Source of the DNA: a virus
Taxonomy: Duplodnaviria; Caudoviricetes
IMG/VR virus record: IMGVR_UViG_2974630879_000001
Span: 12,336 to 76,335 of that record
DNA: 64,000 nt
Strand: one strand, 5' to 3'
Positions 4,846-7,960 of this stretch are shown here, in pieces (position 1 is the stretch's first letter; each line of letters begins with the position of its first letter). The notes beneath the pieces are model-generated. The model had not been told where the DNA came from and ran no database searches. It worked only from the letters and a program-made list of their open reading frames with translations. The position numbers and the translations under genes are program-made.

Positions 4846-5256
4846 ATGTCTGAGAAGAACATTTTCGAGCAAGCCACTCGTGCTGCTGCTCGATTCCCTT
4901 CGCCGGTTGGTGATCTCTCAACTGAGCAACTGTGGTCGCTGCCCTTGACTTCGCTCAAGGGTGCTGACCTCAACGGCATTGCTGTGTCCGTCAACCGTGA
5001 GTTGAAGGCACAGGGCGAGGAGTCCTTCGTGGACACCAAGCCGAATGCCAAGTCTGCTCTCCTGGCTCTGAAGCTCGATGTGCTGAAACACATCATTGCC
5101 GTCAAGCAGGCTGAGAACGCCGAGAAGCTCGACGCTCAGCGTCGTGCAGCGGAGATCGCCAAGATCGAAGAGATCCTCGTGTCGAAGCAGACGGACGCCT
5201 TGGCGTCGAGTTCTGTCGAAGACCTGGAAAAGCGACTGGCAGAGCTGCGCAAGTAA
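4846..5256 (+). CDS. conserved phage coiled-coil protein, 136 aa
   Basis: AAGGA RBS, 9 nt after the previous stop; helical and charged C-terminus. Confidence 0.8.
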   Translation: MSEKNIFEQATRAAARFPSPVGDLSTEQLWSLPLTSLKGADLNGIAVSVNRELKAQGEESFVDTKPNAKSALLALKLDVLKHIIAVKQAENAEKLDAQRRAAEIAKIEEILVSKQTDALASSSVEDLEKRLAELRK

Positions 5257-5267
5257 TACCGTTTTAT

Positions 5268-5437
5268 GGATTACCTAGGTGTGCAACAGTGGAACGCTTG
5301 GACAATAGCTACGTCTGAGTTAGGTCATTCGAGCGGGATCGGCCCGTACCAAGAAGCTGCCAAGACACTTACCGCAACACCGTCCATGGGGGTGAGAATG
5401 TGAAGGATGAAAGCGGCTTTCACTAGGTAATCCGCCA
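5268..5437 (+). ncRNA. oversized tRNA-like RNA A (170 nt, G-CCA end)
   Basis: Perfect 11-bp terminal stem GGATTACCTAG (5268-5278)/CTAGGTAATCC (5423-5433) followed by G-CCA; internal hairpins; AT at -2/-1. Confidence 0.6.
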
Positions 5438-5445
5438 TATGTAAG

Positions 5446-5471
5446 GGGGCCACTCAATAGGGAGTGGCCCC
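5446..5471 (+). other. 10-bp perfect hairpin immediately 5' of the hammerhead
   Basis: GGGGCCACTC-AATAGG-GAGTGGCCCC; no U-tract follows. Confidence 0.7.
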
Positions 5472-5473
5472 AT

Positions 5474-5523
5474 GCCAATCTGATGAGTCCGTTAGGACGA
5501 AACACACTCTGTGTGTAATTGGC
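5474..5523 (+). ncRNA. type I hammerhead ribozyme
   Basis: GCCAAT-CTGATGA-GTCC(GTTA)GGAC-GAAA-CACAC(TCT)GTGTG-TA-ATTGGC: complete core with three paired stems; predicted cleavage after GTA at 5517. Confidence 0.95.
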
Positions 5524-5864
5524 TGTTTGAGATGAAAGGGTGCCACCCTGGAATCAATATTGTTCAGCCCGTCGCCAATGCGATCATTGGCTAATTCAGC
5601 ACTGAGGATGTGCTGCACCTGTTCAGTACCCTCGCAAGGTACGTTGAACCAGGGGACGCAAGTAACCCTTAGAGGCGTGTATAACCGGGAGTCTAAATCC
5701 GGTGCTGTGTCCTAATTCACAGTGAGTTGATACCAAATAGAGAAGATTAGGCTCGCTTGGTTAAGCACTCGTAGACTTGGCAACTACATACACGTCTCGC
5801 CTTCATATATTTGAGGTAGCAACCCACTTGTGCTCTTGTACAAGATAGTCTAAGGTTGCTGCCA
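5524..5864 (+). ncRNA. putative large structured RNA between the hammerhead and the first tRNA
   Basis: Many 5-11-bp helices, including 5672-5682/5788-5798 and 5815-5824/5854-5863; no credible ORF. Confidence 0.5.
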
Positions 5865-5873
5865 CAACGCTTT

Positions 5874-5949
5874 CGCGGGATAGTTCAGTTGGCAGAACAC
5901 CGGACTCATAATCCGGATGTCGTCGGTTCGAATCCGACTCCCGCAACCA
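5874..5949 (+). tRNA. tRNA-fMet: tRNA-fMet-like (CAT)
   Basis: 76-nt cloverleaf, C1:A72 mismatch, anticodon CAT at 5907-5909, T-loop TTCGAAT, encoded CCA. Confidence 0.93.
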
Positions 5950-5956
5950 GTTTCAT

Positions 5957-6042
5957 GAGGGTGAGTAGCTCTGGCGTGGCATCGGCCATCAACTAGCTGG
6001 AAGCTCATTAACGTCAGAGTTGAGTTCCTGAGACCTTCGCCA
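5957..6042 (+). pseudogene. degenerate tRNA-like element (86 nt, G-CCA end)
   Basis: Six-bp acceptor GAGGGT/ACCTTC, G-CCA, bulged T-arm with loop TTGAGTT; poor D and anticodon arms; same GTTTCAT leader as tRNA-Ser. Confidence 0.55.
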
Positions 6043-6046
6043 GTTT

Positions 6047-6128
6047 TGACCATCTCCCTGTAAATTTCAGTGGAGGCGTCCCTGCCAGCTCACGACCGTG
6101 AGTGGAATTCGCATCAGGGGGATGGTCA
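6047..6128 (+). ncRNA. putative 82-nt structured RNA closed by a 14-bp stem
   Basis: TGACCATCTCCCTG (6047-6060)/CAGGGGGATGGTCA (6115-6128), one G-U pair; inner hairpin CTCAC-GACC-GTGAG. Confidence 0.5.
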
Positions 6129-6131
6129 TCT

Positions 6132-6207
6132 TGTGGGATAGCTCAGTTGGTAGAGCATTGCCCTGATAAGGCAAGGGTCACTGGTTCGAGTCCAGTTCCT
6201 ACAACCA
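6132..6207 (+). tRNA. tRNA-Ile: tRNA-Ile (GAT)
   Basis: 76-nt cloverleaf; anticodon arm TTGCC-CTGATAA-GGCAA; T-loop TTCGAGT; CCA. Confidence 0.96.
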
Positions 6208-6215
6208 GTTTCAAT

Positions 6216-6266
6216 GGGCGGCGCAGATTTGCTCTTTGTGGGTTTAATTCCCATGGCTGTCCACCA
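6216..6266 (+). ncRNA. 51-nt acceptor/T-arm minihelix with alanine identity elements
   Basis: Acceptor GGGCGGC/GCTGTCC (G1-C72, G2-C71, G3-U70), A73, CCA; T-arm GTGGG-TTTAATT-CCCAT; only 14 nt in place of the D, anticodon and variable arms. Confidence 0.65.
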
Positions 6267-6279
6267 GCTCTTTGACAAT

Positions 6280-6365
6280 GGATCGGGTTATCAGATGGGC
6301 GCTGAGGCAGACTGTAAATCTGCCGTCTCAGGACTCGCTTGGTTCGACTCCAAGCTGATCCACCA
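6280..6365 (+). tRNA. tRNA-Tyr: tRNA-Tyr (GTA)
   Basis: 86 nt; GCAGA-CTGTAAA-TCTGC anticodon arm; long variable arm; T-loop TTCGACT; CCA. Confidence 0.93.
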
Positions 6366-6381
6366 GTCAAACACGTTTCAT

Positions 6382-6467
6382 GGGTTGTTCCGCCGTATGG
6401 ACGGCAAGCGGTCTTGAACACCGTGGCATCCGAAAGGTTGAGGGTTCGATTCCTTAACAACCCGCCA
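6382..6467 (+). tRNA. tRNA-Ser: tRNA-Ser (TGA)
   Basis: 86 nt; GCGGT-CTTGAAC-ACCGT; variable arm with GAAA loop; G73-CCA. Confidence 0.93.
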
Positions 6468-6474
6468 TAGCTTC

Positions 6475-6551
6475 ATGGGATTAGCACAGCTTGGTAGTGC
6501 GTCTGCTTTGGGAGCAGAAGGTCACAGGTTCGAATCCTGTATCCCGTACCA
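6475..6551 (+). tRNA. tRNA-Pro: tRNA-Pro (TGG)
   Basis: 77 nt; TCTGC-TTTGGGA-GCAGA; T-loop TTCGAAT; CCA. Confidence 0.95.
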
Positions 6552-6553
6552 AA

Positions 6554-6849
6554 TGAACTTGTAGGAGTAGGACGAGTACAGTCCTGAAGCCGTGCAGCGG
6601 TCTTACTACAGGCATAGCCAGATGGCTGCACTACATCTTGGCACTTGTTCAACTATTGCTGGTGGACCAGCGTAGGCACTCAGCGAACCTGTACTGCCGA
6701 GTTTTCATGGTATGGAGACATAGTTGTTCGAACTGCTACCACATGTACTTCCCCTCGCCGACAGGTCAGACACGGGGAGCTACCATCTCAGGGCAAATCC
6801 CTGAGGGTGAATGAAGATAGATGCCTTCAAGGCATGCGGATAGCAGTTC
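6554..6849 (+). ncRNA. putative structured RNA between tRNA-Pro and tRNA-Thr
   Basis: Perfect 9-bp 6730-6738/6841-6849 closes a three-hairpin junction; a second junction is closed by 6558-6564/6606-6612. Confidence 0.45.
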
Positions 6850-6860
6850 CTTTTCAATAT

Positions 6861-6936
6861 GCTGCCTTAGCTCAGCTGGGAGAGCACCTGCCTTGTAAGC
6901 AGGCGGTCCACAGTTCAATCCTGTGAGGCAGCACCA
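6861..6936 (+). tRNA. tRNA-Thr: tRNA-Thr (TGT)
   Basis: 76-nt cloverleaf; CCTGC-CTTGTAA-GCAGG; CCA. Confidence 0.96.
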
Positions 6937-7105
6937 AGCAGCGGTAGTTATGGGTAACTACCAGTGGTGCGACACTGTTACACAATCCAGATTCTAGATA
7001 CTGGCCGTGTCAAGCAAAAACACAAATGGGAACCCTTTGAGTAACGCCGAGTCCTCATCAGAGAATCAGGCCGTTGCGCTGATCAGCGTTAATCTTCAGC
7101 ACTAT

Positions 7106-7180
7106 AGGGGAATCGTACAGCGGTCAGTACCCCAACCTTTGACGTTGGTAACCTTGGTTCAAATCCAAGTTCCTCTTCCA
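7106..7180 (+). tRNA. tRNA-Gln: tRNA-Gln (TTG)
   Basis: 75 nt; CCAAC-CTTTGAC-GTTGG; T-loop TTCAAAT; CCA. Confidence 0.93.
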
Positions 7181-7191
7181 ATTCTTTTTAT

Positions 7192-7351
7192 GGTGTGGGT
7201 GCGATCAGAGACATCTGATAGCTTCCATAATGCAACTACGTCTGCTTGCAGGCTAGTGAGCTTCTGTACGACATTAGTAGTTGGCTGTTGCAGCCTCACC
7301 AACGTTGTCAAGTACAGCATGCAGGTAATCAATCCTGTGCCTACACCGCCA
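7192..7351 (+). ncRNA. oversized tRNA-like RNA B (160 nt, G-CCA end)
   Basis: 9-bp terminal stem GGTGTGGGT/GCCTACACC plus G-CCA; four arms in cloverleaf order; shares CTACGTCTG with RNA A at a similar offset. Confidence 0.62.
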
Positions 7352-7358
7352 TCTCAAT

Positions 7359-7408
7359 GTCGCCCTGGGAACTACCGGAAGGGTAGTCTTCCGCCTGGGG
7401 CGGCTCCA
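7359..7408 (+). ncRNA. 50-nt hairpin RNA ending in T-CCA
   Basis: 11-bp stem GTCGCCCTGGG/CCTGGGGCGGC followed by T-CCA; AT at -2/-1. Confidence 0.5.
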
Positions 7409-7411
7409 TAA

Positions 7412-7915
7412 AGACTGGATGACTTCATCCTTCAAGACGGTCTATAAATGTCCACGAAGGGTAGTTTGTCCCTACTAGAACGGGATAGTCAGTTGTGAGT
7501 CCGAATTCTTTAATACGAACTCTCCGTGCATACAGTTGCAGGATTTCAAACACGTAAACTACCAGAACCTGACAGATGTAGTCCTTGAGGCTGCATCTGG
7601 GAATTCTTCCGCAAGTTAGTGACTGACGGTGTAGCTATCGCGCTGCCGTAAAAACATTGTGAGACCTGAGAGGGAGGTGATATCACCCACGACGGTCGGC
7701 GAACACTAGCCTGATCAGCTAAAAAGCTAGGAGAATTTCCAGATGTTGCTTCAACAAGAAGAGCGCATGGCTTATCAACCATAACGCATAGATGCTTGGC
7801 TTACCTAAGCAACATCGTCTACAGACCCACTTTGCTGAGTGCTCAACAGAGAGCCGTAGCTTCCGAATGTGATCCCCTGTCACGGTAGAAGTTATGCGGA
7901 GTCATGATCCGGCTC
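7412..7915 (+). ncRNA. putative ~500-nt structured RNA
   Basis: Uninterrupted 17-bp helix 7593-7609/7730-7746, 8-bp 7460-7467/7556-7563, 6-bp 7851-7856/7910-7915; no credible ORF. Confidence 0.5.
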
Positions 7916-7925
7916 AGCTCCCCTT

Positions 7926-7960
7926 AAAAGCTCAGACATTCGTCTGGGCTTTTATTTTTT
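7926..7960 (+). terminator. intrinsic terminator closing the RNA island
   Basis: AAAAGCTCAGAC-ATTC-GTCTGGGCTTTT followed by ATTTTTT. Confidence 0.85.

Follow-up and report, generated by a model that had tools for sequence, protein, structure and literature searches.

The window analysed here, 64,000 nt of viral DNA (bases 12336-76335 of the complete 76,335-bp phage record IMGVR_UViG_2974630879_000001), carries at positions 6216-6266 of its plus strand a genuine tRNA-derived gene for the top half of an alanine-type tRNA, which has neither a D arm nor an anticodon arm. We propose, with a probability of roughly 0.45, that this 51-nt mini-tRNA gives rise to a tRNA-derived accessory RNA that would be released by RNase P, could be charged by alanyl-tRNA synthetase (AlaRS) and would be unable to decode. 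Judged from its distribution among related phages, the mini-tRNA is an accessory module, apparently gained and lost like the neighbouring tRNA cassettes. The phage record has direct terminal repeats, and among named phages it is closest to Stenotrophomonas and Xanthomonas phages of the genus Pokkenvirus, family Schitoviridae (N4-like).

The gene and its immediate flanks consist of the following parts, all on the plus strand.

6208..6266, plus strand: cassette (leader and mini-tRNA), 59 nt, precisely missing in the closest relative, L031
6208..6215, plus strand: leader, 8 nt, with AT before G+1; presumed RNase P cut at 6215/6216
6216..6222, plus strand: 5' strand of the acceptor stem (positions 1-7), pairing with 6256-6262 (7/7)
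6223..6237, plus strand: connector, 15 nt in place of the D arm, anticodon arm and variable loop
6238..6254, plus strand: T arm, a 5-bp stem (G:U, U-A, G-C, G-C, G-C) with a 7-nt loop
6255, plus strand: extra G, either a bulge between the T stem and the acceptor 3' strand or part of a sixth T-arm pair with U6237
6256..6262, plus strand: 3' strand of the acceptor stem (positions 66-72), in which U70 is 6260 and U68 is 6258
6263..6266, plus strand: discriminator A73 (6263) and encoded CCA (6264-6266), forming with G6267 the right copy of a 5-nt repeat
6267..6279, plus strand: trailer, or spacer to the 5' end of tRNA-Tyr, 13 nt, still present in L031

The acceptor pairs are G1-C72, G2-C71, G3:U70, C4-G69, G5:U68, G6-C67 and C7-G66. 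The T stem forms between 6238-6242 and 6250-6254 and includes G53-C61, and the T loop (6243-6249) has U54, U55, R57 and A58, with U rather than C at position 56. Pairing of G6255 with U6237 would extend the arm to 6 bp and the stack to 13 bp, and the connector would then be 14 nt. This extra G is missing from the allele in the relative L021 and from all other mini-tRNAs compared. A preliminary description of the window had listed a 7-bp acceptor stem with G1-C72, G2-C71 and G3-U70, a discriminator A and CCA, a T-like arm of 5-6 bp and a connector of 14 nt. The stems, discriminator and CCA can be read directly off the sequence, whereas the connector length holds with the 6-bp arm and becomes 15 nt with the 5-bp arm. 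The minimum free energy (MFE) fold of the 51 nt is exactly the described structure, at -18.7 kcal/mol, and adds a possible 3-bp stub hairpin within the connector (6223-6225 with 6230-6232). Compared with a canonical tRNA, the mini-tRNA has the 7-bp acceptor stem, discriminator, CCA and T arm, deviates in U56 and a 1-nt bulge at 65/66, and lacks the cloverleaf with its D and anticodon arms.

This arrangement is distinguishable from chance. The test pattern required an acceptor stem of 7 bp with a single base and CCA after it and, directly abutting, a 5-bp stem that includes G53-C61 and closes a TTnnAnn loop. This pattern matches six times in the window, at five tRNAs and the mini-tRNA, all on the plus strand of a single RNA island, and not once in 40 Markov shuffles of 64 kb scanned on both strands. 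Standard detection tools pass over the element. ARAGORN calls neither a tRNA nor a transfer-messenger RNA (tmRNA) for the mini-tRNA, no Rfam family matches it at gathering or permissive thresholds in 4 kb or with the element isolated, and the Rfam tRNA model RF00005 stays without a match up to E = 10 even when run on 72 nt in isolation. Additionally, a search of the window for an antisense partner found complementarity below chance, with two matches of at least 9 nt against about 10 expected.

The acceptor end carries the marks of an alanine tRNA. In PMC9976931, the bacterial tRNA-Ala identity set is given as A73, G2-C71, G3:U70, G4-C69 and G20, and the direction of AlaRS by G3:U70 and A73, minihelices included, is presented there and in references therein as established, in agreement with the preliminary description, in which AlaRS charges anticodon-less minihelices. 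In the mini-tRNA, the major determinant is formed by G6218 and U6260 and is kept in L021. Among the minor determinants, A73 and G2-C71 are present, 4:69 is C-G rather than G-C, and there is no D loop, hence no G20. A true phage tRNA-Ala(UGC), in L026, has an identical acceptor stem, including C4-G69 and G5:U68. The alanine identity set claimed in the preliminary description (G3:U70, A73, G1-C72 and G2-C71) is thus present, and it is kept in L021 despite a diverged interior.

Three closer relatives of the phage are known only as Logan contigs and were found via their flanking proteins. In L021, whose neighbour protein is 93% identical, a 50-nt allele of the mini-tRNA lies before tRNA-Tyr (L021:4125-4174), with identical leader and trailer. 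The two alleles agree in only 35 of 51 aligned columns, while tRNA-Met is unchanged and tRNA-Tyr differs at 2 positions. Within the mini-tRNA, the connector differs at 8 of 15 positions (with a common core of just 5 nt at 6231-6235), the T loop at 56, 57 and 59, and the two outer pairs of the T stem on both strands, with pairing kept (G:U and U-A here, U:G and G:U in L021). On the other hand, acceptor positions 1-6 and 69-76 are unchanged, and the acceptor stem with ACCA has 2 changes in 18 positions compared with 8 in 15 for the connector; 5:68 goes from G:U to G-C, and 7:66 from C-G to A opposite G. G3:U70, A73 and CCA are all kept. Because the two alleles are truncated in the same way and to the same length, the short form is older than either. 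In L021 the diverged patch has sharp edges, which suggest an exchange with a more distant short-form allele, and no convincing source was found for the donor of this interior. A 10-nt string of the L021 connector recurs in the neighbouring 86-nt RNA, and an 11-nt string of the L021 T loop recurs in tRNA-Tyr; either would fit a generic tRNA consensus.

The closest relative, L031, which comes from the same run as L020, has an upstream 136-aa protein that is 97% identical and a downstream protein (same cluster) that is at least 90% identical. In L031, the CCA of tRNA-Ile is followed directly by the 13-nt trailer and then by tRNA-Tyr, the block 6208-6266 being exactly gone. The left copy of the 5-nt repeat, at 6204-6208, consists of the tRNA-Ile ACCA plus G, and the right copy occupies 6263-6267. 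Since L031 has the mini-tRNA trailer and not a Pokken-type spacer, the cassette appears to have been gained in the subgroup ancestor and lost later in L031, and the simplest history would be such a gain followed by secondary loss between the two repeats. Other cassettes vary as well: tRNA-Ile, tRNA-Ser, tRNA-Pro and tRNA-Thr are gone in L021, tRNA-Thr is gone in L031, and a 170-nt RNA at 5268-5437 is missing from L020. In phages Pokken, Paxi and PB119, an empty spacer of 10-11 nt separates tRNA-Ile from tRNA-Tyr; in Piffle the junction is filled by an unrelated insert of 98 nt, and more distant relatives have other neighbours after tRNA-Ile. None of the relatives examined has a full tRNA-Ala at the mini-tRNA site. 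The preliminary description had named a full tRNA-Ala in relatives, with a deletion private to this isolate, as the finding that would speak against it; no relative has that gene, and L021 is short as well. Conservation of the short form, which it had also proposed to check, is seen in the L021 allele and is broken by the loss in L031.

Database searches returned little beyond these genomes. Neither the mini-tRNA nor the L021 allele has a significant blastn match among 50,697 phage records. Scanning IMG/VR with a conserved 20-mer of tRNA-Tyr returned phage Pokken only, the same scan of metagenomes returned only two bacterial tRNA-Tyr genes, and an IMG/VR search with the upstream 136-aa protein found distant phages only (42-52% identity).

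Some features of these related contigs stand apart from the mini-tRNA. The tRNA-Tyr of PB119 (L003:3263-3347, called by ARAGORN) is missing from the deposited annotation. At L021:4190-4700, the 3' part of tRNA-Tyr is fused to a tRNA-Gln-like 3' end, and a 128-aa open reading frame (ORF), a putative HNH gene, replaces tRNA-Ser, tRNA-Pro and tRNA-Thr; a homing-endonuclease gene might be expected at such a place in a tRNA island (compare PMC13096335). L022:7782-7890 has the shape of a tRNA whose anticodon region is enlarged by about 35 bases, perhaps by an intron or insert; ARAGORN does not call it.

The same design recurs in other phages. IMG/VR was scanned for a 5' acceptor hexamer, a gap of 10-32 nt, a T loop and a 3' acceptor strand; the gap was chosen as too short for a real tRNA, and the acceptor sequence was fixed by the pattern, with positions 68 and 70 left free as pyrimidines and U70 therefore not fixed. 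Six matches are parts of true tRNA-Tyr, each with C70 (6/6). The other eight are anticodon-less mini-tRNAs from five sequence families (48, 48-variant, 58, 62 and 62 nt), and G3:U70, A73 and an encoded CCA occur in 8/8. The window element has the traits of this class: a phage genome, 45-65 nt, an acceptor stem and T arm joined by a short connector, G3:U70, A73 and CCA. Beyond the fixed parts of the pattern, no homology was found between it and the other members, whose connectors are unrelated and whose T arms differ, and the members may be convergent rather than homologous. In a second IMG/VR scan with a GGGGC-type acceptor, U70 was found in 14/14 matches, although this pattern is biased to the 3' ends of tRNA-Ala and tmRNA and some matches may be attachment-site (att) fragments.

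Individual members differ in setting and in degree of reduction. In the tRNA array of a 463-kb phage, two alanine-type mini-tRNAs of 62 and 55 nt stand in tandem, 38 nt apart (L036:5676-5737 and 5776-5830), and the array also includes four complete tRNA-Ala genes; the T loop of the second mini-tRNA is 8 nt long. L043 keeps its D arm and lacks only the anticodon arm. The 48-nt family, found at two loci, lies between a terminase gene and a metallophosphoesterase gene; no integrase is nearby, so the family does not consist of att-site fragments, and its two variants show a compensatory change in the T stem. Bacterial genomes gave a single match, a 57-nt top-half element on the contig L032 of a bacterial metagenome-assembled genome; its G3-C70 indicates that not every top-half element is of the alanine type.

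The surroundings of these loci are as follows. At L035:3208-4106 and L041:3742-5153, the 48-nt mini-tRNA stands between the terminase large subunit and a 258-aa calcineurin-like metallophosphoesterase, and in L041 an HNH gene and a tRNA-Gln are found there as well. No metallophosphoesterase was found in the window's genome with Pfam PF00149 or the 258-aa protein as query. An acceptor-less tRNA follows 8 nt after the 57-nt RNA of L032 (L032:3010-3150, minus strand; Rfam tRNA 35.9 bits, model positions 5-66), and this pair is flanked by an HNH gene and five tRNAs on one side and by an SPFH protein and an RtcB ligase on the other, with HipA nearby. Large phage tRNA arrays also hold tRNA-like RNAs of 83-84 nt (L024:10715-10798 and L025:333-415). 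In these the acceptor stem and T arm are normal, a hairpin resembles an anticodon arm and the D region is aberrant; neither ARAGORN nor Rfam calls them.

The proposed route from gene to charged RNA depends on the island in which the mini-tRNA lies, between two full tRNAs.

5257..7960, plus strand: RNA island, 2.7 kb without a credible ORF, holding 7 tRNAs, a hammerhead and other CCA-ended RNAs
6132..6207, plus strand: tRNA-Ile(GAU), the upstream neighbour, called by ARAGORN; Rfam tRNA 71.7 bits
6280..6365, plus strand: tRNA-Tyr(GUA), the downstream neighbour, called by ARAGORN

The island begins after a stop codon at 5256 and ends at its sole intrinsic terminator, a strong one at 7925-7954. 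Its tRNAs as called by ARAGORN (Met, Ile, Tyr, Ser, Pro, Thr and Gln) are all on the plus strand and all encode CCA (7/7). Since no sigma-70-like promoter was found inside the island (5257-7960), the mini-tRNA should be co-transcribed, as part of a polycistronic tRNA transcript. Host RNase P would then cut after U6215; a cut at 6215/6216 is expected from the U at -1, the G+1-C72 pair, the RCCA end and the acceptor/T stack. A U-rich leader ending in AT|G is common to the mini-tRNA, tRNA-Tyr, tRNA-Ser, tRNA-Thr and other CCA-ended RNAs of the island. A second RNase P cut, at the 5' end of tRNA-Tyr, would leave the 13-nt trailer, which host 3' exonucleases could trim to the encoded CCA. The tRNA-Ala identity of the acceptor end would then allow charging by host AlaRS, while without an anticodon the RNA could not decode. 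From established enzymology, the mini-tRNA can probably be excised and loaded with alanine. Its likely use would be to mimic the acceptor end of tRNA-Ala and so tie up a host factor that reads it, with AlaRS, EF-Tu and a defence enzyme directed at acceptor stems or CCA as candidates, the target being speculative. Enzymes that read the acceptor stem or CCA do exist, among them the MenT toxins (PMC10435456) and the toxSAS FaRel2 (PMC11559606).

The island holds further RNAs of note. In tRNA-Met (5874-5949), C1 stands opposite A72, which leaves the first position unpaired, as is usual in initiator tRNAs of bacteria. The hammerhead at 5474-5523 has a complete core with stems II and III closed and stem I open, matches Rfam Hammerhead_3 at 25 bits (E = 0.04, under the gathering score) and is kept in L020 and L021, with substitutions confined to the loops of stems II and III. 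An 86-nt CCA-ended RNA between tRNA-Met and tRNA-Ile (5957-6042), likewise kept in L020 and L021, has a 6-bp terminal stem that also carries a G:U at 3:70, but with A2-U71 and G73. Between tRNA-Thr and tRNA-Gln, a 165-nt non-tRNA stretch (6937-7101) is 85% identical to a PB119 counterpart that sits between tRNA-Met and tRNA-Ile; the stretch is a mobile, conserved RNA module.

Several observations weigh against the proposal of a chargeable accessory RNA. The folding energy of the mini-tRNA is unexceptional (z = -1.7), and the L021 allele has z = +0.5, a different MFE fold and the A7xG66 mismatch. The element is present in two genomes only, and its clean deletion in L031 indicates that it is dispensable. 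The window copy is also the most eroded of the eight mini-tRNAs compared, having U56 against a near-universal C56, a connector without GG and the bulged G. The compensatory pattern in the T stem comes from two sequences, is not statistically strong and could instead reflect patch-wise exchange, and the persistence of G3:U70 could follow from shared ancestry alone. Finally, searches for phage-encoded partners found no SmpB, AlaRS, FemAB, Acetyltransf_6 (FemX-type), LPG_synthase_C (aaPG-synthase-type), CCA-adding enzyme, RtcB or metallophosphoesterase. The earlier suggestion of an Ala donor found no backing, as the phage has no detected aminoacyl-tRNA-dependent transferase.

Much of this also fits the main rival, in which the cassette is a decaying relic, once functional or captured already truncated, that is still excised via its tRNA-like ends, has no selected role and is heading for loss. 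We regard relic status as possible and place it behind functional status, which we favour tentatively. Besides the clean loss in L031, it is in line with the restriction to two genomes, the family being missing from the 50,697 phage records and from IMG/VR; with U56, bulged G6255 and two G:U pairs here and A7xG66 in L021; with an interior that evolves far faster than the neighbouring tRNAs; with the unremarkable folding energies; and with a rapid turnover of island cassettes, in which tRNA-Ile, tRNA-Ser, tRNA-Pro, tRNA-Thr and RNA A are each missing from some relative. A relic would not, however, be expected to keep all processing and alanine-identity features in both alleles when a third of the columns differ, to restore T-stem pairing on both strands, or to change far less in the acceptor stem and ACCA (2/18) than in the connector (8/15), and the same anticodon-less G3:U70 design in unrelated phages is hard to explain by repeated accidents. 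The notion of a tRNA-Ala deletion remnant in the preliminary description therefore survives as this serious rival, and falls as a simple private deletion of a resident tRNA-Ala.

The remaining explanations have less in their favour. Bacterial RNase P reads the top-half shape, a U at -1 and RCCA in model hairpin substrates, and all three are present here in a co-transcribed, densely processed island, so the element might be a pure processing signal in the manner of t-elements, which recruits RNase P and shapes the maturation of neighbouring RNAs. We consider this very unlikely, since both flanking tRNAs bring their own RNase P sites, and tRNA-Ile and tRNA-Tyr are directly adjacent in four relatives and in L031, which implies that nothing there needs punctuating; the retained alanine identity set and encoded CCA would also be left unexplained. 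About as unlikely is a tag-less RNA consisting of the tRNA-like domain (TLD) of tmRNA only, which would bind host SmpB and block or divert trans-translation. G3:U70, A73, CCA, a T arm and the lack of an anticodon arm are common to the mini-tRNA and this domain, and there is precedent in mycobacteriophage DS6A (PMC4131195) and in jakobid mitochondria (PMC3590771). The 15-nt connector without a D-loop analogue or P2a, set against 48 nt in DS6A, speaks against it, as do the negative Rfam and ARAGORN tmRNA searches and the lack of a detected SmpB in the phage; on the same grounds the tmRNA-mimic or SmpB-decoy role suggested in the preliminary description is not upheld. A last explanation is that the likeness to a tRNA arose by chance in spacer DNA, or that the element belongs to a small protein gene: short stems often form by chance, and a 67-aa ATG frame (ORF 6214-6417) does cross the element. 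Nevertheless, none of the 40 shuffles gave a match, the L021 allele is homologous and its 1-nt shorter length shifts the frame, and the ORF runs on through tRNA-Tyr. The coding reading was rejected, and this explanation as a whole is effectively refuted.

The proposal of a chargeable accessory RNA can be extended to the class. Phages might deploy natural alanine-charged minihelix RNAs as an effector class of their own, decoys loaded by AlaRS that would soak up an acceptor- or CCA-directed defence enzyme or tune the availability of AlaRS and EF-Tu. We hold this broader idea, with the window RNA as a working member, to be unlikely on present evidence. Viral tRNAs are known to neutralise PARIS, Septu or retron defences (PMC11464382, PMC13096335), and a new kind of small RNA would, if the idea is correct, join these tRNA-based tricks of phages. 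For more than 30 years, minihelix-Ala has served in the laboratory as a model of tRNA identity and in thinking about how tRNA originated; a natural minihelix-Ala gene recurring in unrelated phages would mean that evolution uses the acceptor-end "second genetic code" without decoding. There is also a consequence for annotation, in that tRNA finders and Rfam miss such genes entirely. What can be claimed for this copy is modest: the element is real and derives from a tRNA, yet it is optional and somewhat eroded, and it adds one data point. Its interest lies mainly in the class to which it points.

Several known systems resemble the mini-tRNA in part. Among tmRNAs, DS6A encodes a "TLD only" form, and a similar molecule inhibits tmRNA, perhaps by SmpB titration (PMC4131195), while the tag-less forms of jakobid mitochondria have the same identity set (PMC3590771). 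Like these, the window element is a natural RNA with the alanine identity set and a T arm and without a decoding or message part, and like that of DS6A it is phage-encoded; its alanine-type acceptor and T arm without an anticodon arm are what a TLD would show. The DS6A element, which we located at L033:28478-28557, has a 48-nt connector with a D-loop analogue and a P2a helix, and its CCA is not encoded. In contrast, the window element is 51 nt long, encodes CCA and lies inside a tRNA operon, and neither its 15-nt connector nor that of L021 holds the D-loop analogue and P2a helix that form the SmpB platform. The Rfam tmRNA covariance models do not match the mini-tRNA even on the isolated 72 nt, and only the 13-nt T hairpin of L021 matches RF00023 (6.8 bits, gathering score 47).

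The mascRNA (RF01684) and the plant mitochondrial t-elements are likewise reduced tRNA shapes read by tRNA-processing enzymes, but they are eukaryotic or organellar and occur in another context, and the analogy is one of shape only. The mascRNA model can be aligned over the whole of the L021 allele, from the acceptor stem through the 3-bp stub hairpin to the T arm, at an insignificant 12.3 bits (E = 2.5). The mascRNA-menRNA threshold of 42.5 bits is reached neither by the window, which has no match, nor by L032 (29.2 bits). RNAC and RNAD of phage T4 are likewise non-tRNA small RNAs that lie in a phage tRNA cluster and are co-transcribed with it. Both have tRNA-like ends processed by RNase P. 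They differ in being much larger, in having no sequence relation that we could find and in that the alanine identity set is not a reported feature of theirs; of these small stable RNAs of the tRNA region it is stated that the "biological roles are unknown" (PMC3014915).

A further likeness is the synthetic minihelix-Ala. It, too, stacks an acceptor stem on a T arm and has G3:U70, A73, CCA and no anticodon. Minihelix-Ala RNAs inhibit by competing for the synthetase. Their charging by AlaRS goes back to Francklyn and Schimmel (1989), as cited in PMC9976931. Minihelix-Ala is a laboratory construct with a continuous 12-bp hairpin, whereas the window element is a natural gene, known from its sequence, that has a 15-nt connector at 7/49, a 1-nt bulge at 65/66, U56, C4-G69 and G5:U68. 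The comparison with tmRNA does not support membership in that family; by its predicted architecture, the mini-tRNA is a variant of the known tRNA-like RNAs.

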